Shown here: positions 1,598-25,696 of the stretch, one piece after another | Layout of the letters: the number at the start of each line of letters is the position of its first letter | Position numbering within the stretch: position 1 is the stretch's first letter | NCBI GenBank assembly: GCA_964355885.1 | Contig: CAYHFJ010000003.1 | Coordinates: 2,391 to 66,390 of the forward strand | DNA: 64,000 nucleotides | Origin: an uncultured Flavobacteriales bacterium | Lineage (GTDB): Bacteria > Bacteroidota > Bacteroidia > AKYH767-A > 2013-40CM-41-45 | Direction of reading: 5' to 3' | Made by a program: the position numbers and the translations under genes | Notes under the pieces: model-generated | Told to the model about the DNA's origin: nothing | Seen by the model: only the letters and a program-made list of their open reading frames with translations | Database searches by the model: none

Positions 1598-2761
1598 ATG
1601 AATAAACTGGAAGAAATAATCGATCACGCAAAGGAATTGTCATTTGATCTTAACTTTTCCTATGCAAAAAAATGGAAAAAAGAAGCCGCTGACAGAATTC
1701 TGGTAGGCTATCTGCCTATTTATATTCCAAGGGAAATTATACATGCCGCGAACGGACTGGGAGTAGGTACGTTTGGAGCCGGTGACCATAAGCAAATTAT
1801 TAAAGGTGATGCCTATTACCAATCCTATATATGCCATCTGCCACGCGGAATTATCGAAATGGCCTTAGATAAAAGCTTTGATGAATTTGATGGCTTTTTA
1901 TTTCCGGCTATTTGCGATTGCGTCCGCAACCTTTCGGGAATGTTCAAATTAATAAAAAAGGGGAAATTCAATCGTTACTTTGATTATCCTCAAAATTTCA
2001 ACTATAAGATAGGTGGCACATTTTATAGAGAAATGTTAGAAATAATTATAAAAGATATGCACGCCATAAATGGTGTGAAGGTTACAACACAGAAACTCAA
2101 TCATGCCATTTCCCTATTTAACACTAACAGGCAGCTCATAGAAAAATTATACGATCAGCGGCAAAAGTATCCATGGCGTATATCCGCTGCCGATTTATAT
2201 CTTATTATTCGCGCCGGAATGGTAATTCCTGTTGAGAAACATAATCAAATTCTTATAGATACACTGGATCAGTTGCAGCTGGATTTAGGAGAGCCTCTGG
2301 ATAATATCCGTGTTATTCTCAGCGGATCATTTTGTGAACAACCTCCAATCGGACTAATCAAATCAATTGAAATGGCCGGATGTTTTATCGTGGATGATGA
2401 TTTTATGCTTGGTTCACGATGGATTCAGGGAGATATCAATGATCAATCAAAAGATCCACTCGATGAACTTGTGAAAGCTTTTTTATACCAAAGCGTGGCT
2501 TCATCCGCATTATATGACATAGTAAACCCGAAAGCGGAAAAATTAATAAATAAGGTAAAATCCAGAAACGCTGATGGGGTAATCTTTTGTGCGGCGAGTT
2601 TTTGTGATCCGGCTTTACTGGATAGACCAACACTTCAAAAAGCCTGTGATGAAGCAAATATAAACCACATTAATTTTCAGTTCCATGAAAATACAGGACA
2701 ATTTAAAGTCATTAAAGAACAAGCCGGCACCTTTGCTGATTCTATAAAACTATGGGTATAA
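1598..2761 (+). CDS. bcrC: Benzoyl-CoA reductase gamma-like subunit (HGD-D family, BcrC/BadD-like)
   Basis: 387 aa. HGD-D-type Cys-containing segments (YICHLPRG, AICDCVRN, GSFCEQPP, AASFCDPA). First gene of a four-gene set with lengths 387/438/481/279 aa and an order that mirrors BcrC-B-A-D (as I recall about 386/434/438/282 aa in Thauera). Confidence 0.6.
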   Translation: MNKLEEIIDHAKELSFDLNFSYAKKWKKEAADRILVGYLPIYIPREIIHAANGLGVGTFGAGDHKQIIKGDAYYQSYICHLPRGIIEMALDKSFDEFDGFLFPAICDCVRNLSGMFKLIKKGKFNRYFDYPQNFNYKIGGTFYREMLEIIIKDMHAINGVKVTTQKLNHAISLFNTNRQLIEKLYDQRQKYPWRISAADLYLIIRAGMVIPVEKHNQILIDTLDQLQLDLGEPLDNIRVILSGSFCEQPPIGLIKSIEMAGCFIVDDDFMLGSRWIQGDINDQSKDPLDELVKAFLYQSVASSALYDIVNPKAEKLINKVKSRNADGVIFCAASFCDPALLDRPTLQKACDEANINHINFQFHENTGQFKVIKEQAGTFADSIKLWV

Positions 2762-4068
2762 ACAAAGCTATGAGCAATCCTAAAGAAGCAATTAAAGAAA
2801 AAAGCATGATCATTCAAAAACAGATGCTAAGCAATCTGTTTAAAGAATTAGGTACTGCAAAAGAAACAGGGAAAAAAGTCGTCTATACTTTTGTTCCCGG
2901 AAATCTTACAGAAATAATTCTTGCTCTTGATCTCCTGCCCGTGTATCCTGAAATCAATGCCTTGCAATCAGGCATGAGAAAACAATCGGGGACGTTTATT
3001 AAAGATGCCGAAAAATATGGACATTCCGAAGATGTCTGCACCTATGTAAAATGCGATATCGGCATGATGCTCAATGGAAATATCGGGCCTACCGGAGAAA
3101 AGATTCCCGAACCCGACATTTTATTATTGAGCTATACAGGTTGTTTCACATTTATGAAATGGTTTGAAAACCTGGAAAAAATTTATCCGAATGCTGAAAT
3201 CATCATGCTTCATACGCCATATCAGGAGAACGGAGAAATTACGGATGATATGGTGGAATACATGACAAAGCAATTAAAAAACGACGTGATTCCAAGAATG
3301 GAAAAAGTGGCCGGAAAAAAACTGGATTATAAAAAACTATCCAAAATATTATCCAATTCAGCAAAAGCGGAAGATTACTGGGTCAAAGTACTAGAATCCG
3401 CGAAGCATACACCCTCACCTATTGATTCATATTTCGCAGGAGTGTATTATATGGGTCCTATTTTCTCCGCATTCAGAGGCACAGAAGAAGCCGTTGAGTA
3501 CTACAAGGAACTGCTCTCTGAGGTGGAAGACAGGATTGAAAAAGGGCTGGGACCGGTCACGCCGGAAGGTGAAATGAAAGAAGAAAAATTCAGGCTGGTA
3601 GTGGAAGGGCCTCCAAACTGGACCAACTTCCGGGAGTTCTGGAAAATATTTTATGATATGGGAGCAGTCATCGTCGCGTCGACTTATACAAAGGTTGGCG
3701 GTGTCTATGATCAGGGATTTCGTCATGACCCGGATCATCCATTGGAAACCATGTCAAGATATTGCATGGGATGTTACACTAATTTAAATCTGCCACAACG
3801 AGTGGACTTGATCGAAAAGTATATAAAAGAATATAAAGCAGACGGCTTCCTTATCAATTCAATTAAGAGTTGCAATTCATTCTCAGCAGGACAGTTGTTG
3901 ATGATGCGGGAAATTGAACAAAGGCTGAGTGTTCCTGTAGGATTCATTGAATCAGATCTTGTAGATCCCAGATATTTCTCCTATGCAAACATTAAGAACA
4001 GACTTGAATCATATTTTCAAATGCTGGAGCAAAGAAAATTAATTATGTCACAAGAAATTATAAAATAA
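2752..4068 (+). CDS. bcrB: Benzoyl-CoA reductase beta-like subunit (HGD-D family, BcrB/BadE-like)
   Basis: 438 aa. HGD-D-like segments VVYTFVPGNLTEIILALDLLPVYPE, DVCTYVKCD, YTGCFTFMKW and IKSCNSFS. Overlaps the upstream stop by 10 nt; an alternative in-frame ATG lies at 2770. Confidence 0.6.
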   Translation: MGINKAMSNPKEAIKEKSMIIQKQMLSNLFKELGTAKETGKKVVYTFVPGNLTEIILALDLLPVYPEINALQSGMRKQSGTFIKDAEKYGHSEDVCTYVKCDIGMMLNGNIGPTGEKIPEPDILLLSYTGCFTFMKWFENLEKIYPNAEIIMLHTPYQENGEITDDMVEYMTKQLKNDVIPRMEKVAGKKLDYKKLSKILSNSAKAEDYWVKVLESAKHTPSPIDSYFAGVYYMGPIFSAFRGTEEAVEYYKELLSEVEDRIEKGLGPVTPEGEMKEEKFRLVVEGPPNWTNFREFWKIFYDMGAVIVASTYTKVGGVYDQGFRHDPDHPLETMSRYCMGCYTNLNLPQRVDLIEKYIKEYKADGFLINSIKSCNSFSAGQLLMMREIEQRLSVPVGFIESDLVDPRYFSYANIKNRLESYFQMLEQRKLIMSQEIIK

Positions 4069-4084: not shown

Positions 4085-5530
4085 ATGCAGAAGTATTATC
4101 TCGGAGTTGATTTAGGTTCGACAACATCCAAAGCTGTAATCATCAATGACAAAGATGAAATTATTGGTCGTGGAATCACGAACACCCGTGCCAATTATAA
4201 TGTAGCCGCCGACATTGCACGAATGGAGGCTATATATAATGCCCGATTTTCCATACTCAAAAAAAAGCTTGACACTGAAATCCAACAGAAACCTGAGTAT
4301 AGAAAATACATTTCGGATCTGGAAAATGTATTTCAATACGAACAATTCAAGGTGAGACTGGACAATCTGGGAGAAAAACTGATTACTACCTGTGAAAGTT
4401 TTTTCAAAGACGAAGAAACGAGGTCAAAGATGGTTGAGCAACTAAGGAATATCAGAAGGGCTTTCAAACCCAAAATTAAATACGAATATTTATATAAAAA
4501 TCTTAGTGATAAAAATCAATTCTTCAGAGATATTGTATCGGAAAGATACAATGAAGAAGTCAATAAACTTGACTCAAGTTTTTTTGAACCCTTGATGACG
4601 GTATGGGACAAAAGTATTACACCTGCAGAAAACGAAATTATAAATTTTGATTTCAAGGCTTTGGTACATATGGCCATGAACGTCTTGAAAGAAAAATATG
4701 ACAATCTTCCTGATTTGCCACAGAATACAAAGATTGTAGATGATGATGATTTTGATGTTGAATTATATTTGCTCAAAGGTGAGTTCGATCATGTTTCCAG
4801 TTCACTCCGAACTCATGTGGATGAAATCACCGACATAGAATTTCAAATTGAAAACATGACAGGAACAGGCTATGGCAGGGCACTGTTGCCATTTCCGGCC
4901 GATTGTATCCGATCAGAAATCCTTTGTCATGCATTTGGTGCTCATGCCTTTTTCCCGAATACCAGAACGGTACTGGACATTGGTGGTCAGGATACAAAAG
5001 CCATTCAGGTGGATCAATACGGCCTGGTTACCAGTTTTCAAATGAACGACAGATGTGCCGCCGGTTGCGGAAGATATCTGGGTTATATAGCTGATGAGAT
5101 GAGTATATCATTGAATGAACTGGGACCTTTAGCTATGAAAGCGGAAAAAGAAGTAACCATCTGTTCTACCTGCACTGTTTTTGCCGGAGCGGAATTGAGG
5201 GAATTGACAAATCTTGGAGAGAAACGGGAAGATATTCTTGGTGGGCTACATAAAGCAATTGTCATGCGTGCGATGTCTTTGCTCGCACGTTCAGGAGGTG
5301 TGTTCAATGAATTTACATTTACGGGTGGGGTGGCACGAAATCTATCAGTTGTAAAGCATCTTACAGATCTGGTAAAAGAAAATTACGGCGATAAAATTAA
5401 AATCAATATTCATACTGACTCCATATTTATGGGAGCCATGGGTGGGGCTATGTTCGCCAGAAGAAACATGCAAGCCATTGTACCTTCCAACAAACAAAAT
5501 TCCGTTCAAGAAAAACCGGCAACCGCCTAA
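4085..5530 (+). CDS. bcrA: Benzoyl-CoA reductase alpha-like ATPase subunit (BcrAD_BadFG/ASKHA family, long form)
   Basis: 481 aa. N-terminal phosphate loop YYLGVDLGSTTSKAVI, DIGGQDTKAI, and a cluster-ligand Cys pair in NDRCAAGCGRYLG and CSTCTVFAGAE. A ~200-aa insertion after the first loop makes it the large ATPase partner. Confidence 0.65.
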   Translation: MQKYYLGVDLGSTTSKAVIINDKDEIIGRGITNTRANYNVAADIARMEAIYNARFSILKKKLDTEIQQKPEYRKYISDLENVFQYEQFKVRLDNLGEKLITTCESFFKDEETRSKMVEQLRNIRRAFKPKIKYEYLYKNLSDKNQFFRDIVSERYNEEVNKLDSSFFEPLMTVWDKSITPAENEIINFDFKALVHMAMNVLKEKYDNLPDLPQNTKIVDDDDFDVELYLLKGEFDHVSSSLRTHVDEITDIEFQIENMTGTGYGRALLPFPADCIRSEILCHAFGAHAFFPNTRTVLDIGGQDTKAIQVDQYGLVTSFQMNDRCAAGCGRYLGYIADEMSISLNELGPLAMKAEKEVTICSTCTVFAGAELRELTNLGEKREDILGGLHKAIVMRAMSLLARSGGVFNEFTFTGGVARNLSVVKHLTDLVKENYGDKIKINIHTDSIFMGAMGGAMFARRNMQAIVPSNKQNSVQEKPATA

Positions 5531-5548: not shown

Positions 5549-6388
5549 ATGGAAACTATTTTAACAATGGGTATCGATGTTGGAAGTAATTTCATCAAAC
5601 TAATTTTAATGAAATATTCCGATGAGCCGGAAATTCTGGACAAGCAAACTGAAAAGATCAGAAAGCGTGACCCCATCTTTGTTGCTGATGAGATGGTACA
5701 AACCATGCTTACCAAGCATAAATTAAAATATAATGATATAGCCTATCTCGCTTCAACGGGAGAAGGTGATTTAGTCAAAAAAAAACGTGGGCATTTTTAT
5801 GGAATGACCACTCACGCGAAAGGTGCTCACTTTCTGTTTCCCGAAGCAAGAACAGTCGTAGATATGGGCGCACTATTTGTCCGGGCTATAAAAGTTGGGA
5901 GTGATGCACGTGTGCTTGATTATAAAATGACAGGGCAATGCGCTTCCGGTTCAGGGCAGTTTCTGGAAAACATATCGAGGTATCTTGGATTATCAATTGA
6001 AGAAGTTGGAGAGGTATCCATCAGTTCGGACAACCCGGAGGTATCATCAGGCATTTGTGCTGTTCTGGCAGAGACTGATGTCATTAATATGGTATCCAGA
6101 GGAGTTAGCACTCCGAACATCATAAAAGGTATTCATCTTTCCATCGCATCAAGAATTGTCAAGCTGTTAAGTTCACTCAAATCAGATTCTCCTATCATTT
6201 TAACCGGAGGAATGGCCTTGAATACCGGGATGATTCAAGCTCTCAATGAAAACATTCAGGAAAGCAGTAAGAAGTTTGAAATTAAAGCTTCTCCGGATTC
6301 CATTTATGCAGGTGCTATTGGCGCGGCGATATGGGGTGGTTACCGTCATTACAAACTAATAGAAAAAGCCGAAGTAGGGAACCAATAA
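5549..6388 (+). CDS. bcrD: Benzoyl-CoA reductase delta-like ATPase subunit (BcrAD_BadFG/ASKHA family, short form)
   Basis: 279 aa. Motifs MGIDVGSNFIKLIL, MTGQCASGSGQFLE, SSGICAVLAETDVI and LTGGMALN. A second, non-identical ATPase directly after the first, as expected for the heterodimeric BCR electron-activating module. Confidence 0.65.
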   Translation: METILTMGIDVGSNFIKLILMKYSDEPEILDKQTEKIRKRDPIFVADEMVQTMLTKHKLKYNDIAYLASTGEGDLVKKKRGHFYGMTTHAKGAHFLFPEARTVVDMGALFVRAIKVGSDARVLDYKMTGQCASGSGQFLENISRYLGLSIEEVGEVSISSDNPEVSSGICAVLAETDVINMVSRGVSTPNIIKGIHLSIASRIVKLLSSLKSDSPIILTGGMALNTGMIQALNENIQESSKKFEIKASPDSIYAGAIGAAIWGGYRHYKLIEKAEVGNQ

Positions 6389-6395: not shown

Positions 6396-8132
6396 ATGAA
6401 CATACTTCAATCCAGTCAGAAATTAAGCAGCACTTTCCCGAATATTGCAAGCCTATTGAAAACTAATACACAGCGGTTTTCCAATAGAATAGTTTATCAG
6501 GAAAAGGTCAAAGAAAATTATGAAGGCATCAGCTGGACAGATATTTACAATGACATTCTGAATATCGCCGGTAATCTTAAACAACTGGGTTTTTCAAAAG
6601 GTGATAAAATGGTTTTTTATTCACCCAACAGAAAGGAGATGCTCGAACTGGAATTGGCGGTGATGTCCATAGGCGGTATTGCGGTTCCTATCTACGCATG
6701 GTTTTCGCAAGAAACCGCTGAACTTTTAATCCGACACTCTGAAGCGAAATACCTGGCGGTATCAGGAGAATATCAACTACGAAATCTTTCATCAAACCTA
6801 GGTTTAAATAAAATCATTGTTTTTGATCCAATCGAAAGTTACCCGGGTTTAGGAAGGCTGGAGCTTTTCACTCATCTCCTGGAAGAAAGAAGCGATTCTT
6901 CTATTTCACTCGACATTCATGCATCCCCCGATGACAATTGCCTGAACATGTATACCTCCGGTACCATGGGCATTCCTAAATGTGTACAATTGTCACACAA
7001 AAATATACTATCCCAACAAGCCGGTTTGGATGCACTTGGCTGGTGGAATATCAATGAGAATGATCGATTTCTATCCTATTTACCATGGCATCACAGCTTC
7101 GGAGGGATATTTGAGTTATTCAATGCTCTTTCTCATGGAGCGACCTATTCACTGGAATCAAGCTATGGAAAGAATGTAAATAGCATTATTGAAAACTGGA
7201 AAATCATTCAACCTACTGTTTTTTTTAGTGTACCCAAAATTTATCAAGCTCTTTTCGAAATATTAAAAGAAAACCCTGAGGTAGAAGCACAGTTTTTTCA
7301 TCCCGATTTAAAATTTGTTTTTACTGCAGCGGCAACCTTACCTGAAAGTTTAACTAAAGAATTTGAAAAAAGAAATATTCCAGTAATAGAAGGATGGGGT
7401 CTTACGGAAACATCTCCTTGTTGCACGCTCACTCATCCAGGAATAAAAAGATCAAAAGGTATTGTTGGTAAACCCATTCCCGGGGTGAGTATCCGGATCT
7501 CTGACGACAATGAGATACAGGTTATGGGACCTAACGTAATGAAAGGTTATTTTAAAAATGACGAAGCCAATAAAAATATTTTTACAGAAGATGGATGGTT
7601 CAGAACAGGTGATATTGGAGAAATTACGGATGAAGGAATAAAATTAATTACCCGTAAAGATCGCATTTTCAAACTATCCAATGGAGAGAAAGTTATAGCC
7701 ACAGAGATGGAAGCACTTATCATGGCAAAATGCCATTACATTTCTTTTGCTATTGTATCAGGCAGCGGAGAGGAATATCCAGTGGCCATATTATTTCCCA
7801 ATAAAAAATTGTTACAAAACCCAACCTATGAAATCTCGCCGGTTGAAGGATGTTTTTGCCCAAGAAATCTTGCGGAGTTGGGCAAATGCTTACATGGTTG
7901 TCTTCATGACGCCAATTGTGGTATAGGGCAAAAATTCTCAAAAATAAAATCAGCGATTATCATTGATGATGAATTAAGCATTGAAAATAGTACGTTGACG
8001 CCATCCATGAAAGTGGCTCCTAATAATGTAATGAATATTTATAAGGCACATCTGGAAAATTTACATGGCGAAAAAAATGAATTAAAAGAAGAAGTTTTCA
8101 TCATCCGTTTAGACACCGCCAAAACAAGATGA
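6396..8132 (+). CDS. AMP-forming acyl-CoA ligase (ANL superfamily, long-chain/ACSL-like architecture)
   Basis: 578 aa. Motifs YTSGTMGIPKCVQLSHKN, GWGLTETS, TGDIGEITDEGIKLITRKDRIFKLSNGEKV and C-terminal LTPSMKV. Confidence 0.8.
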   Translation: MNILQSSQKLSSTFPNIASLLKTNTQRFSNRIVYQEKVKENYEGISWTDIYNDILNIAGNLKQLGFSKGDKMVFYSPNRKEMLELELAVMSIGGIAVPIYAWFSQETAELLIRHSEAKYLAVSGEYQLRNLSSNLGLNKIIVFDPIESYPGLGRLELFTHLLEERSDSSISLDIHASPDDNCLNMYTSGTMGIPKCVQLSHKNILSQQAGLDALGWWNINENDRFLSYLPWHHSFGGIFELFNALSHGATYSLESSYGKNVNSIIENWKIIQPTVFFSVPKIYQALFEILKENPEVEAQFFHPDLKFVFTAAATLPESLTKEFEKRNIPVIEGWGLTETSPCCTLTHPGIKRSKGIVGKPIPGVSIRISDDNEIQVMGPNVMKGYFKNDEANKNIFTEDGWFRTGDIGEITDEGIKLITRKDRIFKLSNGEKVIATEMEALIMAKCHYISFAIVSGSGEEYPVAILFPNKKLLQNPTYEISPVEGCFCPRNLAELGKCLHGCLHDANCGIGQKFSKIKSAIIIDDELSIENSTLTPSMKVAPNNVMNIYKAHLENLHGEKNELKEEVFIIRLDTAKTR

Positions 8133-8133
8133 T

Positions 8134-9357
8134 ATGTTTGAAATAAAATGCAAAGAGAAGTTAAAGATATTGATGGACGGCTACTTCCAGTCATTCCTAA
8201 CAAAGGAAAAACCGGTAGCATGGTGTACCAGTGTGGGTCCGGCAGAGTTACTACGTTCTTTTGGATTCGAAGTTTATTTTCCGGAAAATCATGGTGCACT
8301 TTTAGGGTCCACCAGAACCGCGATGGATTTCATCCCAGCCTCAATCAAAAATGGTTATTCCAATCATATATGCTCCTACACTACAAGTGATATTGGAGCA
8401 TTCCTGTCTGGAAAGACTCCACTGGAAAAACACTATGGCCTATCTGCTGTTCCAACACCGGATTTGATCGTGTACAATACGAATCAATGCCGGGAGGTAG
8501 AAGACTGGTTTACCTTTTACGCGACACAATTTAATTGTCCTATTGCAGGAATTCATCCGCCAAGACATCTTAATGAGGTAAATCAAGATGTAATTGATTT
8601 AGTTGTGAAACAATTCAAATCAATTATTCCAATTTGCGAAAAAACTTCAGGAAATGAATTTGATATCGATCAATTCAGGGAGGTTCTGAGAATTAGCAAG
8701 GAAGCGACCTTGCTATGGAAAAAAGTATTAGAAACAGCAAGAGTGAGTCCGGCACCTATTTCATTCTTTGACGGCGTGATACATATGGGTCCTATCGTCG
8801 TTTTGAGAGGGCGGCAGGACGCTTACGATTATTATGCAGAGCTTCTTGCAGAATTGACGGAGTACAACAAAAACAAACAAGGATTTCTTGAAAAAGAAAA
8901 TAGTCGCATATTTTGGGAAGGAATGCCGATTTGGGGCAAACTAAGGATGATGTCGGATTTATTCAAAGAAAACAATGCCGCGGTAGTTGCCTCGACCTAT
9001 TGCAACAGTTGGATATTTGATGACTTTGACGAAAGGCAACCCTTTGAAAGCTCCGCACTGGCTTATACCCAATTATTTATCAACCGTAGCGAAAGTGTGA
9101 AAATGGAAATGCTGAAAAAATGGGTAGATGATTATCGTATTGATGGAATAGTCTTTCATGATACAAAGACCTGCTTTAATAATTCCAATGCCAAATTCGG
9201 AATGCCATTAAGAATAAAGGAAAAATATAAAATACCAACTTTGGTAATCGAAGGAGACCTTTGTGATTTACGATTTTTCTCCGAAGGACAAAGTATTACA
9301 AAAATCGAAACATTCCTTGAACAGATAGATGCAAAGAAACATACGGTTCAACAATGA
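8134..9357 (+). CDS. Orphan single HGD-D family protein (2-hydroxyacyl-CoA dehydratase / YjiM / double-cubane-cluster-protein-like)
   Basis: 407 aa. Family-typical segments PVAWCTSVGPAELLRSFGFEVYFPENH, NHICSYTTSD, NTNQCREV, ASTYCNSW and HDTKTCFNNS. The start lies 1 nt after the ligase stop, and its own stop overlaps the next start (ATGA). No second HGD-D partner gene is adjacent. Confidence 0.65.
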   Translation: MFEIKCKEKLKILMDGYFQSFLTKEKPVAWCTSVGPAELLRSFGFEVYFPENHGALLGSTRTAMDFIPASIKNGYSNHICSYTTSDIGAFLSGKTPLEKHYGLSAVPTPDLIVYNTNQCREVEDWFTFYATQFNCPIAGIHPPRHLNEVNQDVIDLVVKQFKSIIPICEKTSGNEFDIDQFREVLRISKEATLLWKKVLETARVSPAPISFFDGVIHMGPIVVLRGRQDAYDYYAELLAELTEYNKNKQGFLEKENSRIFWEGMPIWGKLRMMSDLFKENNAAVVASTYCNSWIFDDFDERQPFESSALAYTQLFINRSESVKMEMLKKWVDDYRIDGIVFHDTKTCFNNSNAKFGMPLRIKEKYKIPTLVIEGDLCDLRFFSEGQSITKIETFLEQIDAKKHTVQQ

Positions 9358-11204
9358 AAACTTCAGAAATACCGGATTATTCGAAATTTAAAATCGGCAT
9401 TATCGGAATGGGACCCGTAGGATCCATTTTGGCGATGCATTTTCAAGATGCAGGTTGCGAAGTAATTATATGCGATAAGGATAAAATTAAAATGAATGTA
9501 TTCCGAAAAGAAGGCGTTTTTTTCGAAGGCATCATTGACAAACACATAACCTTTAAAAATATCATCACTGATGTTAAGGAATTTTCAAAATACGAACCGG
9601 ATATTTTAATTTTTGCTTTAAAGAGTTATCAAACTAAAGAATGCGCAAATGATGTGTTCTCTTTTTTCAATGAAGAAAAACAAGTTGTCGTTAGTGCACA
9701 AAACGGAATTGATACGGAAAATATCCTTACAGATATTTTTGGGGAAAGTAATGTATTAAGAATGGTCATCAACTTTGCCGGCAACATCATCGCATCTAAT
9801 CGAATCCGATACACTTTTTTCATCCCACCAAATTATATTGCTTCCATCGATGACAGTAAAACAAAACTTGCAATAGCTATCGCTGAGAGCTTGAATAATG
9901 CACAAGCGGACACAGAAGCCATATCGTCTTTTGAAATGATTAAAAAAGTATGGGAGAAAACGATTTTAAATTCTTCTTTGAGTGCATTATGTGGAATCGG
10001 AAGGATGACAATGAAGGATGCCATGGAAATTCCGGATACGGTTGAAATTATACAACAAGTAATTGAAGAAGCTGTTGAAGTGGCTGAAAAGGAAAAAATT
10101 TATTTTGAAGATGATTTCATTCGTAAATGTATCCGGTATCTAAAAAAGGCCGGGAACCACTTCCCTTCACTGGCAGTGGATCTTATGAATAATCGCCCAA
10201 CTGAAATTGATTATTTTAATGGAAAGATTGTTGAATACGGCAGAAAGCATTATATCCGCACCGCGCTGAACCTGTCCTTCACCAATATGGTAAGGGCAAT
10301 GTCTCAAAAGAGTACGAATGCAATGTTACATGCAAGTCCGGAATTGATTTTTAAAAAAAAATCAGACGTTGTTTCAAATGGAGCAAAGCCTGATGGCAAG
10401 AAATCAAAAAACCAAGCGGCTTATCTGGGGGTTGATTTGGGTTCCGCCTTCATGAAATTTTGTGTAATTGATGAAGATGAGAACGTATTATTTCAAACAG
10501 CGATAAAAACATTGAACCGCGAAAAAGTAGCCTTTAAACATGTGCTTGATGCCATACATACCGAATACAACATTCAGTCAAGCTGCGCGACGGGTTACGG
10601 GAGAAAATATTTCGTGGAAGCTGAGATGGTAAAGACAGAAATTAACTGTGCCAATGCAGGTGTCTCGAAATACCTCAGCGGGAAAAAATGCATCATAGAT
10701 ATAGGAGGGGAAGACATTAAAATAATCCATTGCGATGAAAACAACAATGTTGACAATTTTTATTTGAACGATAAATGTGCTGCAGGTACAGGTTCCTTCA
10801 TCACTGAAATAGCTGAAAGAGCTGAAGTCAATGTGAAAGAGATGAGCCAACTTGCCCGTCAATCAGAATTCAAAAAGGAACTGAATAGTTTTTGTACAGT
10901 TTTCGCAAAGACAGAAATCATGAGTTGGCTTTTTGAAGGAGTACCCCTACCGGATATCACTAAAGGAATTTATATATCTATCGCGAATCGGGTGTCAAAA
11001 ATGCGTTTGGATACCAGCGTTCCTATCGTGATGATCGGAGGCGTTATTGCACATCACCCCTATCTTAAAGAAATACTGGAAAAACGATTGAATACATCTA
11101 TTCACATCATTGACCAGCCACAATTTGTTGCTTCCTATGGCGCTGCGATTATTGCCAAAGAAAAAGAGAAAATGAAAACTACAGAAGACACAGAAATTTT
11201 ATAA
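9354..11204 (+). CDS. Fusion protein: N-terminal ketopantoate-reductase-like (ApbA/PanE) NAD(P)-oxidoreductase, C-terminal BcrAD_BadFG-type [4Fe-4S] activase ATPase
   Basis: 616 aa in one uninterrupted frame. N-terminal part (nt 9354 to ~10300): KIGIIGMGPVGSILAMHF Rossmann loop, SAQNGIDTEN, WEKTILNSSLSALCG and SLAVDLMNNRPTEIDYFNG. A Lys-rich linker follows. C-terminal part (nt ~10416-11204): AYLGVDLGSAFMKFCVID, IDIGGEDIKII, NDKCAAGTGSFITE, NSFCTVFAKTEI and MIGGVIAHH. Confidence 0.75.
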   Translation: MKTSEIPDYSKFKIGIIGMGPVGSILAMHFQDAGCEVIICDKDKIKMNVFRKEGVFFEGIIDKHITFKNIITDVKEFSKYEPDILIFALKSYQTKECANDVFSFFNEEKQVVVSAQNGIDTENILTDIFGESNVLRMVINFAGNIIASNRIRYTFFIPPNYIASIDDSKTKLAIAIAESLNNAQADTEAISSFEMIKKVWEKTILNSSLSALCGIGRMTMKDAMEIPDTVEIIQQVIEEAVEVAEKEKIYFEDDFIRKCIRYLKKAGNHFPSLAVDLMNNRPTEIDYFNGKIVEYGRKHYIRTALNLSFTNMVRAMSQKSTNAMLHASPELIFKKKSDVVSNGAKPDGKKSKNQAAYLGVDLGSAFMKFCVIDEDENVLFQTAIKTLNREKVAFKHVLDAIHTEYNIQSSCATGYGRKYFVEAEMVKTEINCANAGVSKYLSGKKCIIDIGGEDIKIIHCDENNNVDNFYLNDKCAAGTGSFITEIAERAEVNVKEMSQLARQSEFKKELNSFCTVFAKTEIMSWLFEGVPLPDITKGIYISIANRVSKMRLDTSVPIVMIGGVIAHHPYLKEILEKRLNTSIHIIDQPQFVASYGAAIIAKEKEKMKTTEDTEIL

Positions 11205-11210: not shown

Positions 11211-12476
11211 ATGGTTAAAGGATTCTATAATAATACGAAGGGAATCGGGATTGTTTTTGAAGATACCTATCTTCTGAACGGTGCAAGAACGGCATTTGGG
11301 AAATACTGCGGAACTATATCACAGGTATCTCCGATTGATCTTGGGATATTTGCCAGTATAGCAGCAATAGAAAAATGCGGTATTCAGGCGCATGACATCA
11401 ATCAATCGATCATAGCGAATATTGGGCAGAGCTGTGGAGATGCTTATTTTTTACCAAGGTTTATCTCTCTTTATTCCGGTGTTCCTATAAGTGTTCCATC
11501 CTTAATGGTACAGAGAATTTGCGGATCCGGATTTGAAACCATTATTACAGCTTCAGAACAAATAATGCTCCAGAAGGGAGAAGTAATTCTTTGCTGTGGC
11601 ACGGAGAACATGTCGCTTTCGCCTACTGTCAGCTTTGGAAATCGAATGGGATATCCACTTGGAAAACCTGTATTCAAGGACATGCTATGGGAGGCCCTTG
11701 ATGATACTGCCGCCGGATATCCAATGGGATATACCGCTGAAAACGTGGCTACAAAACACCATATAAGCCGTCAGCAATGCGATGATTTCGCGGCACTTTC
11801 ATTTGACAGAGCTATGCAAGCAAAGGTCAATAAATTATTTGAAGAAGAAATCACCCCGGTAAACTCAAGAACCTTTGAAATAGATGGACTTCAACCAAGG
11901 AAAGTTAAATTACCTTCCGGAGCCGGCGTTTTTCAGTCAGATGAACATGTGCGCCAAACCAGTCTTGAAGCATTGGCAAAGCTGCCAACGGTTTTTTCAA
12001 AAATCGGCGTTCTTACCGCCGGTAATTGCAGTGGAATAGTTGATGGAGCTGCCAGTGTGATAGTAGGCACAAAAAAATATGCAGATAAAAATAAAATTAT
12101 ACCACTATCCAGAATCGTGGCGGCTGCAAGTTGCGGTATTGATCCAAAGATGATGGGATTGGGCCCTGTTCCCGCAATACGACTATTGCTTGAGTTAACC
12201 GGACTGAAAATAGAGGATATCGGCTTGTTTGAAATCAATGAAGCATTTTCCGCACAGATCATAGGTTGCGAAATAGAGTTAAACATTGACAGAAATAAAT
12301 TAAATGTAAACGGAGGAGCCATTGCCTTAGGGCATCCCCTTGCAGCCACTGGTACCAGACTTTCGCTCACCATTTCAAATGAAATGAAAAGAAGAAATAT
12401 TAAATATGGAATTGCTTCAGCTTGTATTGGTGGCGGACAAGGAACAGCTATTCTCTTTGAAAATATAACTATCTAA
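11211..12476 (+). CDS. Acetyl-CoA C-acyltransferase (thiolase II family)
   Basis: 421 aa. Motifs VQRICGSGFETI (nucleophile Cys), NVNGGAIALGHPLAATG and ASACIGGGQGTAILFE. Confidence 0.85.
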   Translation: MVKGFYNNTKGIGIVFEDTYLLNGARTAFGKYCGTISQVSPIDLGIFASIAAIEKCGIQAHDINQSIIANIGQSCGDAYFLPRFISLYSGVPISVPSLMVQRICGSGFETIITASEQIMLQKGEVILCCGTENMSLSPTVSFGNRMGYPLGKPVFKDMLWEALDDTAAGYPMGYTAENVATKHHISRQQCDDFAALSFDRAMQAKVNKLFEEEITPVNSRTFEIDGLQPRKVKLPSGAGVFQSDEHVRQTSLEALAKLPTVFSKIGVLTAGNCSGIVDGAASVIVGTKKYADKNKIIPLSRIVAAASCGIDPKMMGLGPVPAIRLLLELTGLKIEDIGLFEINEAFSAQIIGCEIELNIDRNKLNVNGGAIALGHPLAATGTRLSLTISNEMKRRNIKYGIASACIGGGQGTAILFENITI

Positions 12477-12478: not shown

Positions 12479-13540
12479 ATGAAAAATCAGATTTATCAAT
12501 GGCAAATGACAGAACCTGGAAAGCTGTTTGAGTTGATAAAAATACAATTTCCGGAATTAAAAGAAGACGAAGCATTGGTAAAAATTGCCGGTTGTGGAGT
12601 ATGTCACACTGACGTGAGTTTCTGGCATTCAGGTGTGAAAACAAAACATGCCTTACCTCTAACGCTTGGACATGAAATTAGTGGAACTGTATTGGAAGGC
12701 CCTCCGGCATTGAAAGGAAAAAATGTGATTGTTCCTGCGGTTCTTCCTTGTGGTGAATGTGAACTATGCAAAAATGGGAGAAGCAATATCTGTAGAAACC
12801 AGAAAATGCCAGGCAACGATTTTCATGGAGGATTTGCATCCCATATTGTTGTTCCACATCGCTATTTGTGTACTGTTCCGGATGCGATATTGAAAAAATA
12901 TTCATTGGAACAACTGGCCGTTATAGCCGATGCAATATCAACACCCTATCAGGTAATTAAAAAGTCTGAATTGGAGAAAGGTGATCTTGCCATCATCATT
13001 GGAGTTGGTGGTGTCGGAGTTTATGGCGCCTTGTTGGCAAAAATCAAAGGAGCGAAAGTAATCGCCCTTGATATTGATGATAAAAAATTAAATAGAGCAA
13101 AAGAGCATAATATTGACGCGGTACTAAACACCAAAGGGTTGGAATTAAAATCCATCAAATCAAAAATAAGAGATCTGGCAAAGGAAATTGGAGCTCCTGA
13201 TTATTCTTGGAAAATATTTGAATTTTCCGGCACAAGGGCCGGCCAGGATCTTGCATTTAATTTAATCACCTATGCCTCCACTCTTTCCATTGTTGGATTT
13301 ACAATGGATAAGCTGGAACTGCGCTTAAGCAATCTGATGGCCTTCGACGCTAAACTTATCGGAACATGGGGTTGTAAGCCGGAGTTGTACCCGGAAGTAC
13401 TTGCACTCATCGCGGATGACAAACTAAAAATAGATCAGTTTGTACAAACCATTCCCATGTCAAAAATAAATGAAGTATTTCAAAATACACTGGAGCATCA
13501 TTACATTATGCGTCCGGTTTTAATTCCTGATTTTGTTTAA
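12479..13540 (+). CDS. had: Zn-dependent medium-chain alcohol dehydrogenase; by context 6-hydroxycyclohex-1-ene-1-carbonyl-CoA dehydrogenase (Had-like)
   Basis: 353 aa. Motifs GCGVCHTDVSFWH, GHEISGTV, structural Zn site CGECELCKNGRSNIC and IIGVGGVGVYG. Immediately upstream of the Oah-like gene. Confidence 0.6.
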   Translation: MKNQIYQWQMTEPGKLFELIKIQFPELKEDEALVKIAGCGVCHTDVSFWHSGVKTKHALPLTLGHEISGTVLEGPPALKGKNVIVPAVLPCGECELCKNGRSNICRNQKMPGNDFHGGFASHIVVPHRYLCTVPDAILKKYSLEQLAVIADAISTPYQVIKKSELEKGDLAIIIGVGGVGVYGALLAKIKGAKVIALDIDDKKLNRAKEHNIDAVLNTKGLELKSIKSKIRDLAKEIGAPDYSWKIFEFSGTRAGQDLAFNLITYASTLSIVGFTMDKLELRLSNLMAFDAKLIGTWGCKPELYPEVLALIADDKLKIDQFVQTIPMSKINEVFQNTLEHHYIMRPVLIPDFV

Positions 13541-13551: not shown

Positions 13552-14667
13552 ATGAAAACATTAAACAACCACAATCTTATTGACACTACTTACACGGATA
13601 TTATTTATGAAAAAAAACCCTGCCTTGAATCAGACGGGAGTCAAGTTAATGGGCTGTTTAATGTATGGATATATCTAAATAACCCAAAGCAATTCAACTC
13701 TTACACCACAAGAGCGGTCAAAGAAATAATTCTGGCATTCAGGCAGGCATCCAATGACCGCAGTGTCGTCGCGGTAGTATTCACAGCGGTTGGCGACAGA
13801 GCATTCTGCACCGGAGGGAATACGAAGGAGTATGCCGAGTACTATTCAGGAAATCCACAAGAATACTCTCAGTATATGCGTTTATTCAATGACATGGTGA
13901 GTACAATTTTATTTTGTGAGAAACCGGTCATATGCCGGGTGAATGGAATGCGTATCGCCGGAGGGCAAGAAATCGGAATGGCGGCGGATTTCACAATAGC
14001 CACCGATTTAGCCAGATTCGGTCAGGCTGGTCCAAAACATGGAAGTGCGGCGATTGGAGGTGCCACTGATTTCCTTCATCTATTTGTTGGAATAGAAAGA
14101 GCCATGCAGTCGTTAACACTTTGCGAACCTTGGTCAGCACATCAGGCATATATGTATGGCCTTATATCCGAAGTAGTTCCTGCATTGAAAGTTGCCGGAA
14201 AGTTTATCCCCAATCCACTAGTTATATCCGATCGATGGATAGATGAATATGGAAAAATCATATTTGGCGCTTCAAAGACAGGAGAAGCACTTTCTAAAGG
14301 AAAAGAGGTAATGGCCATGGGTGAGATTGATCTTTCACTTCTGGATGAAGCGGTAAATAAATTAATAACAAAACTTCTTTATACATTTCCCAATTGCACC
14401 AATAAAACTATTAGTGAGTTAAGAAAAAAGAAGCTTGAACATTGGGATAAAAATAAAGAAAATAGCCGGGAGTGGCTTGCATTGAATATGATGACAGAAG
14501 CCAAAGCGGGTTTCAGAGCATTCAACGAAGGGCCTAAAGATAATCGCGAAGTTGACTTTGTTAAACTACGCCAATTACTTTCAGAAGGGAAAGAATGGAA
14601 TGATGAAATGATCAAAAATATATCTCCACAGTATAAAATGAAAAAGAATGAAATTGGAAAAAATTAA
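13552..14667 (+). CDS. oah: 6-oxocyclohex-1-ene-1-carbonyl-CoA hydrolase (ring-cleaving crotonase, Oah/BamA-like)
   Basis: 371 aa, the long crotonase form. QFNSYTT (nt 13690-13710) and GQEIGM (nt 13963-13980) correspond to the peptide stretches encoded by the standard degenerate bamA marker primers (QYNSYTT and GQEIGM, recalled from memory). Also AFCTGGNTKEY. Confidence 0.7.
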   Translation: MKTLNNHNLIDTTYTDIIYEKKPCLESDGSQVNGLFNVWIYLNNPKQFNSYTTRAVKEIILAFRQASNDRSVVAVVFTAVGDRAFCTGGNTKEYAEYYSGNPQEYSQYMRLFNDMVSTILFCEKPVICRVNGMRIAGGQEIGMAADFTIATDLARFGQAGPKHGSAAIGGATDFLHLFVGIERAMQSLTLCEPWSAHQAYMYGLISEVVPALKVAGKFIPNPLVISDRWIDEYGKIIFGASKTGEALSKGKEVMAMGEIDLSLLDEAVNKLITKLLYTFPNCTNKTISELRKKKLEHWDKNKENSREWLALNMMTEAKAGFRAFNEGPKDNREVDFVKLRQLLSEGKEWNDEMIKNISPQYKMKKNEIGKN

Positions 14668-15427
14668 ATTCGAATATCAACATAATGGCGAAGTTGCTCA
14701 AATAATTCTGAATGATGGTAAAGGGAATGTTCTTGACTCCATCATGATGGATGAACTATCATTCGTTTTACAAACTATCAAAGAAAAAAAAGAGGTCAAA
14801 CTTATTACTTTTGAAGGTTCCGGAAAACACTATTCGTATGGAGCAAGTGTAGAAGAGCACAAAAAAGATTCTGCACCAACAATGATTCGTTCGTTTCATC
14901 AACTATTTTATGCATTAAAACTTTTATCCATACCTACGCTTTCGAAAATTAGTGGAAATTGTTTAGGCGGAGGAATGGAGCTGGCAATTATGTGCAATTT
15001 TATTTTTGCCGATAAAACCGCCAAACTTGGACAACCAGAAATTATACTTGGTGTTTTCCCGCCCCCAGCCTCTATCATTCTTCCAGAAAAAATTGGCTTA
15101 GCCAGAGCGGAAGAGATATTGCTTACAGGTAAAATCTACTCTGCCGAAGAAACAAAAACCATGGGATTAGTAAATGAGGTTCTGGAAAACAAAGCGGCTC
15201 TGGACGATTATGCCGAAAATTGGATTGTCCAGCACATACTGCCTAAAAGTGCATCCTCTTTAAGGTATGCTGTAAAGGCATCCAGAATGAAATTTAATCA
15301 CCTTCTTACTAATTTTTTACCTCAACTGGAAGATTTATACTTAAAACAACTAATGCAAACAAATGATGCCAATGAAGGAATTAATTCCTTTCTGGAAAAA
15401 AGAAAAGCGGTTTGGGAGAATTGTTAA
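14648..15427 (+). CDS. dch: Enoyl-CoA hydratase family; by context cyclohexa-1,5-diene-1-carbonyl-CoA hydratase (Dch-like)
   Basis: 259 aa crotonase fold (FEGSGKHYSYGASVEE, GNCLGGGMELAIMCNFIFA). 20-nt overlap with the oah-like gene. Confidence 0.55.
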   Translation: MKLEKIKFEYQHNGEVAQIILNDGKGNVLDSIMMDELSFVLQTIKEKKEVKLITFEGSGKHYSYGASVEEHKKDSAPTMIRSFHQLFYALKLLSIPTLSKISGNCLGGGMELAIMCNFIFADKTAKLGQPEIILGVFPPPASIILPEKIGLARAEEILLTGKIYSAEETKTMGLVNEVLENKAALDDYAENWIVQHILPKSASSLRYAVKASRMKFNHLLTNFLPQLEDLYLKQLMQTNDANEGINSFLEKRKAVWENC

Positions 15428-15437
15428 ATCAACTATA

Positions 15438-17429: not shown

Positions 17430-18040
17430 TTTCTGATTCAAAAACATCAGCGCTAATTCTTGCGGCAGGAAACTCTTCCAGAATGAGAACCCAGAAAGCA
17501 CTTCTCCGATTTGAAGACGAAAACACTTTTCTCGAAAACACAATTGAAACTTATATTCGATTTGGAGTTGAACAGCTCGGAGTTGTCGTCTCTCCCCTAT
17601 TGGCACAACAAATCCCCACTAAAATCAAGTCGGCTTTAAGACATCCCAACGTTCTTCTAATAATCAATGAATCTCCTGAAAAGGGGCGATTCTCCTCTAT
17701 AAAATTAGGTCTTTCCGCCTTGAAAGATTGCGACTATTGTTTTCTGCAAAACATTGACAACCCTTTCATTGATCAATATTTACTAAACATAATTTACGAA
17801 TACAAAAATAAGGGTGGATATACAGTGCCCTATTTTAATGATAAAGGTGGCCACCCTATTTTAATTTCAAATAAAATTATTACATACATAAAAAGAACTC
17901 CTGACCACAATATAAATTTGAGACATCTGCTAACCCTGTTTCAAAAGGTTATTGTAAACACAGGCGACCATAAAATTCTCGCGAACATCAACTCACCACT
18001 TGATTATAAGTACTATTTTCAAACAGTAAAATTAACATAA
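17426..18040 (+). CDS. MobA/MocA-like molybdenum-cofactor nucleotidyltransferase
   Basis: 204 aa. Motifs ALILAAGNSSRM...KALL and KGGHPILI. ATGA overlap with the upstream gene. Confidence 0.6.
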   Translation: MISDSKTSALILAAGNSSRMRTQKALLRFEDENTFLENTIETYIRFGVEQLGVVVSPLLAQQIPTKIKSALRHPNVLLIINESPEKGRFSSIKLGLSALKDCDYCFLQNIDNPFIDQYLLNIIYEYKNKGGYTVPYFNDKGGHPILISNKIITYIKRTPDHNINLRHLLTLFQKVIVNTGDHKILANINSPLDYKYYFQTVKLT

Positions 18041-18042: not shown

Positions 18043-18573
18043 ATGCACTCCAAAGCCATAGAATTAATGTATCATGAGCATGATATTATTTTAAAGGCCA
18101 TCTCACAACTAAAACAAATCCTGTCAACTGATGATTTAGTTTCTGGTGCAGGAAAAATCCAGTGGTACATTAAATTCTTCAAAGAGTATGGGGACAACTT
18201 TCATCATCGTAAAGAGGAAGATATTCTTTTCAACATACTTGGGAGCAAAAACGAAATGCTCGCCGGTGGTTTAGTGGATGAATTAACAGATCATCATAGT
18301 CAATTTCGCCACGCCTTAGGCGAATCGGAAATATTCTTACAAAATTCCGACTTAAAAAACGCGAAGAAAACACTAATGGCCTACATGAACGACCTGACGG
18401 ATCACATTGGAGCAGAAAACGATGAATTATTTGTAAGCGCGGAAATGATACTGAATGAAAGCGAAAAAGAAAAGCTTTATTTCTTGTTTATGGATAGTGA
18501 TAATGAATTAAATACTGAAACAAAAAAAGATTTCGAAAATTTAATTTTGAACCCCCACTACATATATGAATAA
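18043..18573 (+). CDS. Hemerythrin-like (HHE cation-binding) domain protein
   Basis: 176 aa with spaced His/Glu motifs HEHD, HHRKEEDILF, DHHSQF and DHIGAENDELF. Confidence 0.6.
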   Translation: MHSKAIELMYHEHDIILKAISQLKQILSTDDLVSGAGKIQWYIKFFKEYGDNFHHRKEEDILFNILGSKNEMLAGGLVDELTDHHSQFRHALGESEIFLQNSDLKNAKKTLMAYMNDLTDHIGAENDELFVSAEMILNESEKEKLYFLFMDSDNELNTETKKDFENLILNPHYIYE

Positions 18574-24561: not shown

Positions 24562-24562
24562 A

Positions 24563-25690: not shown

Positions 25691-25696
25691 AAACAA

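Follow-up and report, generated by a model that had tools for sequence, protein, structure and literature searches.

A lone alpha-type HGD-D protein with a ketopantoate-reductase-type partner in the benzoyl-CoA reductase operon of uncultured bacteria: a possible single-subunit 2-hydroxyacyl-CoA-dehydratase-type module

The 64-kb stretch of DNA analyzed here (the window), from contig CAYHFJ010000003.1 of an uncultured Flavobacteriales bacterium, carries one tightly packed gene cluster on its forward strand, from position 1598 to 23111 (Table 1). Within it lies the gene for HGDx, a protein of the HGD-D family, to which 2-hydroxyacyl-CoA dehydratase and benzoyl-CoA reductase (BCR) subunits also belong. 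The gene shares an operon with bcrCBAD, the genes of a class I (Thauera-type) BCR, which stand directly upstream of a ligase gene and HGDx; the gene that follows HGDx encodes a ketopantoate-reductase (KPR) domain fused to an activase domain. HGDx resembles the catalytic alpha/B-type subunits of the family and has no beta- or C-type partner gene of its own. We propose, tentatively, that HGDx and its neighbors form a module that could convert 2-oxoacids to enoyl-CoA thioesters.

The HGDx open reading frame (ORF) encodes 407 amino acids and has an ATG start in the ORF list of the window. A single base, T at 8133, separates that ATG at 8134 from the TGA stop of the ligase (8130-8132), and the stop of HGDx shares the tetranucleotide ATGA (9354-9357) with the start of the next gene. 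These coordinates bear out the preliminary description of the window, which had placed a third HGD-D gene alone, 1 nt past the ligase stop and overlap-coupled to its successor; the nine cysteines counted there (positions 6, 31, 80, 119, 135, 168, 290, 347, and 377) and the four motifs quoted (AWCTS, HICSY, NQCRE, and KTCFN) are likewise all present in the translation. One NCBI gene call (P0001, 394 amino acids) begins the protein at Met14. We prefer the start at 8134 because residues 1 to 13 are conserved among homologues, with I4 retained in at least 90% of them. The Pfam HGD-D domain covers residues 34 to 398 (E = 4e-59). A database search returned 7,613 HGD-D proteins at E ≤ 1e-10, the best 120 of which were all 68 to 100% identical to HGDx; given more than 120 homologues (cluster representatives) in this identity range and the synteny kept in 86 loci, the gene is not a chance reading frame. 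When every stop-to-stop frame of the window was scanned with phmmer, exactly three HGD-D ORFs (BcrC, BcrB, and HGDx) and three activase-type ORFs were found.

Several comparisons place HGDx among catalytic subunits. In a sequence search of the PDB, its best solved relatives were the alpha subunit HadB (1.4e-44), MbdO (1.2e-32), and BzdO, in that order, and no beta-type or DCCP chain appeared at E ≤ 0.01. In the reverse direction, BcrC, MbdN, HadC, BzdN, and the double-cubane protein DCCP were used as queries on the window and matched BcrC, never HGDx. The AlphaFold2 model of HGDx (pLDDT 91.5, pTM 0.91) aligned with HadB at a TM score of 0.90 to 0.92 and an rmsd of 2.0 Å, with MbdO and BzdO at 0.82 to 0.90, with DCCP at 0.73 to 0.77, and with beta subunits at 0.71 to 0.79. 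The score against TIGR03191 was 66.9 bits (cut-off, 448.6).

We then compared active-site residues in an alignment of 86 family members, 55 BcrB sequences, HadB, MbdO, and BzdO, with residue roles taken from the literature (PMC11971306). Cys80, Cys119, and Cys347 are invariant and align with Cys95, Cys128, and Cys380 of BzdO and with Cys84, Cys117, and Cys346 of HadB, a triad that ligates the catalytic [4Fe-4S] cluster, the fourth iron of which binds water or substrate (PMC11971306). Glu51, also invariant, aligns with Glu65 of BzdO and Glu55 of HadB, and Tyr82 and Tyr289 are equivalent to BzdO Tyr97 and Tyr298, which bind the thioester oxygen (PMC11971306). The position of BzdO His131 is occupied by Val in HGDx, as in HadB, and by Phe in BcrB and MbdO. 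Position 35 is Gly in HGDx, BcrB, and MbdO, and MbdO also has Cys31, Cys135, and Cys168 in common with HGDx. Because the ligand cysteines, Glu51, both tyrosines, and the HadB-like Val are conserved, the alignment and the predicted fold identify HGDx as a catalytic alpha/B-type subunit, nearest to the dehydratase branch.

The preliminary description had labeled the protein double-cubane or YjiM-like, and this label did not hold: besides the PDB matches, the reverse queries, and the fold, the score against the NCBIfam double_cubane model NF040772 (57.5 bits versus a cut-off of 350) and the pattern of cysteines argue otherwise. The DCCP family motif, CX19CX18-19CX29CX166-170CX32-34CX32C, comprises six ligands and a seventh cysteine (Cys94) that binds no cluster (PMC7317905). 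Its positions were mapped onto HGDx by profile alignment through BcrC, MbdN, HadC, BzdN, and DCCP together with the secondary structure of the AlphaFold2 model. In this mapping, C1 falls at Cys31 or one residue away, C2 at Glu51, C3 at Cys80, C4 at Cys119, C5 at Cys290, and C7 at Cys347; C6 has no counterpart, there being no cysteine between residues 291 and 346. An hhalign pairing of FEVYFPEN with FCVYVPEE was discarded as a register error caused by a truncated DCCP template; realignment with full-length BcrC as the first row, taken together with where the model places strands and helices, supported placing Cys31 at or beside C1 and Glu51 at C2.

Two of the three distal-subcluster positions of DCCP and BzdN are therefore kept in HGDx. 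These residues, Cys31 and Cys290, are invariant in the 86 family members, and their equivalents are missing from HadB, BzdO, and the BcrB of the window. Among 106 full-length representatives, no third cysteine covaried with them, and Cys135, Cys168, and Cys377 were confined to Bacteroidota-type members; a second cubane held by Cys31, Cys290, and a third cysteine was accordingly judged unlikely. Some lone relatives (P0248, P0249, P0251, and P0254) have lost Cys290, Cys31, or both. With C6 absent, Glu at C2, and no covarying third cysteine, a double cubane in HGDx is unlikely, and we consider an extra iron-sulfur (Fe-S) unit of any kind improbable. In BzdO, the acyl pocket takes the place of the lost subcluster, a space that Trp46 fills (PMC11971306). 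By analogy, Cys31 and Cys290 may line the substrate pocket of HGDx.

The gene downstream of HGDx was described earlier as a private activase. The ATPase gene does belong to HGDx; what had been overlooked is the reductase domain that forms the N-terminal part of the same protein. This KPR (ApbA/PanE) domain matched Pfam ApbA and ApbA_C (6.5e-21 and 2.6e-28) and scored 149.1 bits against TIGR00745, above the cut-off of 141.35. It is joined by a non-conserved linker to the activase domain, which scored 176 bits against TIGR00241 (cut-off, 125.4) and found HadI (4eht_A, 1.7e-41) as its top PDB match. In an alignment of 66 distinct fusions, the KPR motifs GxGPVG, QNG, WEKTILN, PSLAxD, and TEID were invariant, and they recur in the KPRs of three distant loci described below (L087, L093, and L094). 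In general form they read QNG, W-x-K-x-x-x-N, S-x-x-x-D, and TE[IV][DE], plus the NAD(P)-binding motif, and by analogy with Escherichia coli PanE we take them to hold the catalytic residues. The activase motifs DLGS, NDKCAAGTG, and NSFCTVFAKTE were invariant in the same fusions, so that the ATP site and both cluster cysteines are kept.

HGDx-linked KPRs are nearer to each other (E values of 1e-35 to 1e-50) than to characterized KPRs. Like the PanE/ApbA family, of which the nearest solved members are from Enterococcus (2EW2 and 3WFI), the fusion has both ApbA domains, here within its N-terminal 320 residues, the GxGxxG NAD(P) motif, and what are presumably the family's Asn, Lys...Asn, Ser...Asp, and Glu motifs. 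Unlike that family, it is fused to an Fe-S ATPase (or, elsewhere, to an HGD-D protein), and the best solved member matched at only 5e-22. The KPR domain is the strongest functional clue of the locus, and we predict from its motifs that it is an NAD(P)H-dependent 2-oxoacid reductase. KPR-family enzymes convert 2-oxoacids to D-(R)-2-hydroxyacids, and 2-hydroxyacyl-CoA dehydratases use the (R)-2-hydroxyacyl stereochemistry. The ligase upstream of HGDx is unlike benzoate-CoA ligases in type; its nearest solved relatives are oxalate-, fatty-acid-, and malonate-CoA ligases. The position of HGDx beside a CoA ligase inside a benzoyl-CoA cluster makes a CoA-thioester substrate, as suggested in the preliminary description, plausible.

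The arrangement is conserved far beyond the window. We annotated a close set of 86 loci against the window proteins; 80 came from a scan of one genome per species and 6 were further contigs. All 80 were metagenome-assembled genomes; most belonged to Bacteroidota, and Calditrichota, KSB1, and Chlorobiota/Ignavibacteria accounted for some of the others. With hardly any change, the loci repeated the series bcrC-B-A-D, ligase, HGDx, KPR::activase, (thiolase), had, oah, dch. The ligase lay directly upstream of HGDx in at least 64 of 73 loci, and KPR came right after HGDx in at least 65 of 74; in 63 of these (at least 63 of the 86 loci), KPR and activase form a single protein. Such distance-based counts underestimate adjacency, since the longest-ORF starts overlap the preceding gene, and the order-based listing is the better guide. 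Where enough upstream sequence was available, BcrB, BcrA, and BcrD were encoded upstream of HGDx in 48 of 53 loci.

No beta/C-type HGD-D gene other than the BcrC of the bcr genes was found beside HGDx in any of the 86 close loci, and the neighborhood survey and the rescan of the window revealed no other second subunit, fused or adjacent. The solitary state noted for one gene in the preliminary description is a trait of the family, seen across the 86 close loci and about 90 more distant ones. The departures from the usual order are informative. In L032, the ligase and HGDx occur with KPR and activase as separate genes, and no BCR gene lies within 8 kb upstream. In L008 (1-8254) and L009 (5815-8259), bcrD, ligase, and HGDx follow one another with no bcrC, bcrB, or bcrA within 10 kb upstream, which reflects either a split operon or a different use of the ATPase subunit. 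A gene for a saccharopine-dehydrogenase-like NADP-binding protein stands between bcrA and bcrD in L001 to L006 (e.g., L004, 6243-7382) and just ahead of bcrD in L008; it is not in the window.

More distant relatives were sought exhaustively among 50%-identity representatives, which yielded 230 HGDx relatives at E ≤ 1e-30. Those at 38 to 55% identity also lacked a beta subunit. KPR and activase accompanied them, as did an AMP- or ADP-forming synthetase, and the genes were variously ordered and fused; genes resembling 4-hydroxybenzoyl-CoA reductase (4-HBCR) were near only a minority of them. In a Myxococcota locus (L087, protein P0241), a 728-residue KPR::HGDx fusion was followed by activase, the Fe-S, FAD, and Mo subunits of a 4-HBCR-like enzyme, XdhC, and MobA. 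Elsewhere we found KPR, HGDx, and activase in that order (L093), HGDx followed by activase (L088 and L091), an aminotransferase followed by HGDx (L095), and HGDx with an ADP-forming acyl-CoA synthetase (L089 and L098). An 8.6-kb contig without BCR genes (L094) carried KPR, an acyl-CoA dehydrogenase, and HGDx followed by activase and a ligase of the same architecture as that of the window (38% identity). There was no beta-type neighbor in L087 to L095 or in L098, and a control protein with the classical residue pattern (P0258, 37% identity) sat in the classical order of beta, alpha, and activase. In L092 (4477-6783), a KPR::HGD-D fusion (P0267) precedes an activase-like gene and has none of the three ligand cysteines left. 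In P0267 and a second fusion, P0247, the ligands are replaced by Ser/Gly/Ser or Ser/Gly/Thr, and these proteins may be paralogues that carry no cluster and serve a structural or regulatory function.

We also recovered 80 loci of a sister clade, with proteins about 50% identical to HGDx, by a metagenome scan made with an alignment of non-Bacteroidota members. Of the 20 loci flanked by 4.5 kb or more at each end, an activase was present in 19, KPR in 14, an AMP-forming ligase in 13, and an ADP-forming acyl-CoA synthetase in 11; across all 80, the ADP-forming synthetase was adjacent in 39. A beta-type gene occurred within 4.5 kb in 2 of the 80 loci (1 of the 20 well-flanked ones), and these genes were BcrC-like, in bcr-type clusters. 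Four of the 80 (L115, L136, L146, and L152) are BCR operons in which bcrCBAD is followed by activase, HGDx, an ADP-forming synthetase, KPR, Hcr-like genes, and had-oah-dch, in that order. In L136 (249-12032), identity to the window proteins was 74% for BcrB, 54% for HGDx, and 53% for KPR. Judged from these sequences, such operons encode the same functions after bcrD through non-orthologous or swapped genes and with another CoA-activating enzyme. The module in L105 is flanked by a TRAP carboxylate transporter and an ACT-domain protein.

Across lineages, the conserved unit consists of KPR, a lone alpha-type HGD-D protein, activase, and an acyl-CoA synthetase. A shared function of its parts is suggested by the fusions, since KPR has the activase as its fusion partner in one lineage and HGDx in another (a Rosetta-stone argument), and acid activation appears to belong to the module because a window-type ligase occurs in L094 and an ADP-forming synthetase in the sister clade.

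The remaining genes of the cluster are listed in Table 1. The match of the BcrAD_BadFG profile (271 positions) to BcrA, a protein of 481 amino acids, stretches over residues 6 to 458, which shows a large insertion relative to BcrD-type ATPases. The molybdenum enzyme at the distal end of the cluster joins the gamma ([2Fe-2S]) and alpha (Mo) subunits in one chain, with TIGR03194 as its top NCBIfam model; in the fetched flanks of the 86 close loci, Hcr-like homologues accompanied the HGDx module in 13 cases, and they occur in Myxococcota and sister-clade loci as well. A hemerythrin-domain gene lies amid this operon of oxygen-sensitive enzymes and is kept near the cluster in several related loci; its product may sense or scavenge O2. 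Domain annotation gave no glutaryl-CoA dehydrogenase in the operon, nor any other acyl-CoA dehydrogenase.

Table 1. Coordinates of the genes and features discussed, in positions of the 64-kb window
Feature	Position	Strand	Size and evidence
bcrC	1598-2761	+	TIGR02263, 451 bits, above cut-off
bcrB	2752-4068	+	TIGR02260, 701 bits, above cut-off
bcrA	4085-5530	+	437 bits, under the TIGR02259 cut-off of 578
bcrD	5549-6388	+	TIGR02261, 327 bits, above cut-off
AMP-forming acyl-CoA ligase	6396-8132	+	578 amino acids; AMP-binding and AMP-binding_C_3; translationally coupled to HGDx
HGDx, lone alpha/B-type HGD-D protein	8134-9357	+	Pfam, NCBIfam, and PDB matches; predicted fold
KPR::activase fusion	9354-11204	+	616 amino acids; Pfam ApbA, ApbA_C, and BcrAD_BadFG
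KPR domain of the fusion	about 9390-10307	+	fusion residues 13-318
Activase domain of the fusion	about 10425-11156	+	fusion residues 358-601
Thiolase	11211-12476	+	
Had	12479-13540	+	
Oah	13552-14667	+	
Dch-like enoyl-CoA hydratase	14648-15427	+	
3-Hydroxyacyl-CoA dehydrogenase::enoyl-CoA hydratase fusion	15363-17429	+	
MobA	17426-18040	+	
Hemerythrin-domain protein	18043-18573	+	
SDR	18566-19303	+	
4-HBCR-like Mo enzyme, gamma-alpha fusion	19424-22180	+	918 amino acids; 1rm6_A, 5.7e-171
4-HBCR-like beta subunit (HcrB-like)	22182-23111	+	1rm6_B, 3.4e-42
Serine palmitoyltransferase, CFB type	23329-24561		651 bits (cut-off, 640)
Genes of probable lipid cluster, including the preceding	23329-26710		
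Regions with type IX secretion C-terminal sorting domains	30-1031, 29654-31852		
Giant ORF	36054-45038	-	2994 amino acids

The gene after the HcrB-like subunit encodes a pyridoxal-phosphate enzyme that was considered as an aromatic aminotransferase and rejected, its score identifying it as a serine palmitoyltransferase; we therefore set the end of the cluster at about 23111. Together with a GNAT-domain protein and an epimerase/dehydratase, this gene probably belongs to an unrelated sphingolipid or other lipid cluster. Elsewhere in the window, a giant ORF occupies the reverse strand, and two regions encode C-terminal sorting domains of the type IX secretion system, which fits a Bacteroidota origin.

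HGDx invites comparison with the dehydratases HadBC/HadI of Clostridioides difficile (PDB 3O3M and 4EHT), HgdAB/HgdC, FldBC/FldI, and LcdAB/LcdC. It shares their fold, with HadB as the best match in both sequence and structure, and has the same three cysteine ligands, the Glu, and the thioester-binding tyrosines as HadB. As in these systems, there is one adjacent activase of the homodimer type, nearest HadI. A predicted NAD(P)H-dependent 2-oxoacid reductase, here of the KPR family, is linked as well and could supply the (R)-2-hydroxyacid. Unlike them, it has no HadC-type [4Fe-5S] beta subunit as an electron store, its identity to them is about 26 to 30%, and it is set in the BCR operon of uncultured bacteria, mostly Bacteroidota. 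With BcrB, MbdO, and BzdO (PDB 9G87 and 8S02) it has in common the alpha/B-type fold, an open-iron [4Fe-4S] cluster predicted on the same three cysteines, and the equivalents of Glu65 and Tyr97/Tyr298; it even stands in the same operon as a true BcrB and resembles MbdO in Gly35 and Cys31. It differs from class I BCRs in having no C/N partner of its own and a single activase instead of the BcrA/D heterodimer, and from BcrB, MbdO, and BzdO in the Val at the His131 position and in its low score against the BcrB model.

We propose that HGDx is the catalytic component of a single-subunit branch of the radical enzymes that comprise 2-hydroxyacyl-CoA dehydratases and class I BCRs, and that it belongs to a dehydratase-type module, which would carry 2-oxoacids to enoyl-CoA and, in the window, probably arylpyruvates toward benzoyl-CoA or 4-hydroxybenzoyl-CoA. 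We give this proposal as a whole a probability of roughly 45%. That the module is real, and that no partner-subunit gene other than bcrC adjoins HGDx, is well supported; the dehydratase chemistry and the direction of the reaction, which we infer, are moderately supported, and the aromatic nature of the substrate is a weaker proposition. HGDx would bear one substrate-facing [4Fe-4S] cluster on Cys80, Cys119, and Cys347, with the fourth iron open, and would act without a beta/C-type electron-storage subunit, presumably as a homodimer. The activase part of the KPR::activase protein, presumably itself homodimeric, would use ATP hydrolysis to drive one low-potential electron into HGDx. The pairing of two homodimers has a structural precedent in the complex of DCCP with DCCP-R, where the ATPase cluster lies on the common twofold axis of the homodimers (PMC9351452).

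In the proposed route, the KPR domain would first reduce a 2-oxoacid with NAD(P)H to the (R)-2-hydroxyacid, and the ligase, or elsewhere the ADP-forming synthetase, would then make the CoA thioester in place of a CoA-transferase. HGDx would remove the 2-hydroxyl group by ketyl-radical chemistry to leave a 2-enoyl-CoA, and the electron would be recycled. The likeliest substrates in the window operon would be phenylpyruvate and 4-hydroxyphenylpyruvate, from phenylalanine and tyrosine. The resulting cinnamoyl- or 4-coumaroyl-CoA could be beta-oxidized by the hydratase/dehydrogenase fusion and the thiolase to benzoyl- or 4-hydroxybenzoyl-CoA, which BcrCBAD and the adjacent 4-HBCR-like enzyme, respectively, might then take. 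The operon shared with BCR, Dch, Had, and Oah provides an aromatic context. A para-hydroxylated aromatic substrate would fit the finding that 4-HBCR-like genes repeatedly adjoin HGDx modules in separate lineages, and the TRAP carboxylate transporter and ACT-domain protein in L105 also fit an aromatic substrate.

Several observations weigh against this proposal. All HGDx carriers are metagenome-assembled genomes or metagenome contigs, from uncultured bacteria. Classical dehydratase systems rely on a beta subunit, on a CoA-transferase, and on a D-2-hydroxyacid dehydrogenase from another family than KPR, none of which is present here; the places of the transferase and the dehydrogenase would be taken by an AMP- or ADP-forming synthetase and by a reductase of the KPR family fused to the activase or, elsewhere, to HGDx. 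HGDx scored 210.8 bits against the HadB model NF052455, well below the cut-off of 750, so that the equivalog level is not reached, and 164 bits against the BcrB model TIGR02260 (cut-off, 486.55). The active site departs from that of HadB in Gly35, in the invariant Cys31 and Cys290, and in the motif past Cys347, F-N-N, which matches neither HadB nor BcrB, and its chemistry could therefore differ. No aromatic aminotransferase was found in the window, and no CoA-activating gene lies within 10 kb in the Myxococcota locus. The lower benzoyl-CoA pathway accounts equally well for the thiolase and the hydratase/dehydrogenase genes. ADP-forming synthetases, finally, usually run toward ATP formation, so that flux could go either way.

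The differences in the active site give some ground to a second explanation, which we consider unlikely, although it is the first of the alternatives to be weighed: HGDx could be an ATP-dependent reductase that consumes ATP stoichiometrically in acting on a CoA ester of the aromatic pathway, for example by removing a hydroxyl group reductively or by reducing an enoyl- or aryl-CoA ester. Cys31 and Cys290, at the C1 and C5 positions of DCCP/BzdN and in what is acyl-pocket space in BzdO, would then serve as proton or hydrogen-atom donors, and the task of KPR would be the reduction of a keto group on substrate or product. The invariance of these cysteines in the 86 members, the Gly35 shared with BcrB and MbdO, the additional cysteines shared with MbdO, the singular motif after Cys347, and the repeated proximity of the module to BCR and to the reductive dehydroxylases of the 4-HBCR type would all suit such an enzyme. 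Yet the module has a single activase gene, as dehydratases do, nearest HadI, whereas BCRs use a heterodimeric ATPase; Val occupies the His131 position as in HadB; KPR and an acyl-CoA synthetase follow the upstream logic of a dehydratase route; and some lone relatives have lost one or both of the two cysteines.

It is improbable, in our view, that the module runs backward, as an alpha-hydration in which an enoyl-CoA (e.g., glutaconyl-CoA) would become the (R)-2-hydroxyacyl-CoA, then the free acid, with ATP conserved where the synthetase is ADP-forming, and finally, through KPR, a 2-oxoacid such as 2-oxoglutarate. The frequency of the typically ATP-forming synthetase in the sister clade, both overall and among its well-flanked loci, and the position of the module among lower-pathway genes (thiolase and hydroxyacyl-CoA dehydrogenase) are in keeping with this direction, and 2-hydroxyacyl-CoA dehydratases can work in reverse in vitro. 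An AMP-forming ligase, normally irreversible, is used in the window and in all close loci, however; the operon lacks the acyl-CoA dehydrogenases named above; and the repeated link to 4-HBCR-like genes would be left unexplained.

Still more doubtful is a role as an alternative catalytic subunit that pairs with BcrC to give a second BCR isoenzyme for another aromatic CoA substrate. BcrC is the sole beta-type HGD-D protein of the window, HGDx follows bcrCBAD in the great majority of loci with enough upstream sequence, and HGDx is about 29% identical to BcrB. Against such a pairing, HGDx has its own activase, L032, L008, and L009 have no bcrC within 8 to 10 kb, the relatives at 38 to 55% identity stand alone in loci without BCR genes, and the score on the BcrB model is only about a third of the cut-off.

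We regard it as very improbable that HGDx is a homodimer of the type of DCCP/DCCP-R from Carboxydothermus hydrogenoformans (PDB 6ENO and 7YYL) or E. coli YjiM/YjiL, with a double-cubane [8Fe-9S] cluster reducing a small molecule or unknown substrate: the combination of one HGD-D gene and one ATPase gene (in the window and about 170 related loci), the cysteines at C1, C3, C4, C5, and C7, two of them distal, and the Gly35 where Trp46 of BzdO fills the lost-subcluster space (PMC11971306) recall these proteins, but HGDx lacks the seven-cysteine motif at C2 and C6, scores and folds as a member of the catalytic alpha-type branch and not of the DCCP/beta-like one, has acyl-CoA-binding tyrosines where DCCP has Leu116 and Thr308, and is linked to acyl-CoA synthetases and a 2-oxoacid reductase.

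Returning to the single-subunit dehydratase-type module, we note that the enzyme family and its chemistry are already known. What is new is the alpha-only architecture, the KPR fusions, the use of a synthetase in place of a transferase, the retained C1 and C5 cysteines, and the fixed place in the BCR operon of uncultured bacteria. In our literature searches we found no paper linking KPR with HGD-D or activase genes, none that brought benzoyl-CoA reductase, Bacteroidetes, and 2-hydroxyacyl-CoA dehydratase together, and none on the 9G87/9GAI structures; "MbdO" matched only unrelated acronyms, and benzoyl-CoA reductase came up together with Ignavibacteria or Flavobacteriales in just a few metagenome papers. 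A more far-reaching version, which we think unlikely as well, would make HGDx a third architecture of archerase-dependent radical enzymes, homodimeric and alpha-only, and evolutionarily between the double-cubane proteins and the heterodimeric dehydratases and BCRs. Cys31 and Cys290 would be placed in the acyl pocket for a new chemistry, as hydrogen or proton donors in an ATP-driven reduction of aryl-substituted 2-hydroxyacyl-CoA or as ligands of a residual Fe-S unit. HGDx, KPR, and the synthetase together would then constitute a new anaerobic pathway by which uncultured Bacteroidota, and other bacteria of sediment and groundwater, turn aromatic amino acids into benzoyl-CoA.

The textbook view of this family is that of two homologous subunits per catalytic unit, with only the functionally obscure double-cubane proteins known as homodimers. 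HGDx adds to it a widespread enzyme of the catalytic type without an electron-storage subunit, seen in the roughly 170 loci covered here, which two independent gene fusions and the gene order tie to a KPR-type dehydrogenase and to acyl-CoA synthetases. This raises the question of how an alpha-type cluster is reduced and holds its electron without a beta subunit, and that of the intermediate steps that led from double-cubane proteins to dehydratases and reductases. Source annotations such as "2-dehydropantoate 2-reductase," "benzoyl-CoA reductase subunit," and "2-hydroxyacyl-CoA dehydratase" are attached to genes of the module, and the first two of these routine labels are corrected here for the HGDx-module genes. 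Because many uncultured members of Bacteroidota, Ignavibacteria, Calditrichota, and KSB1 have the module within their BCR operon, it may reveal the natural substrates for anaerobic ring reduction in these abundant organisms, among which aromatic amino acids or aryl-lactates would be likelier than pollutants.

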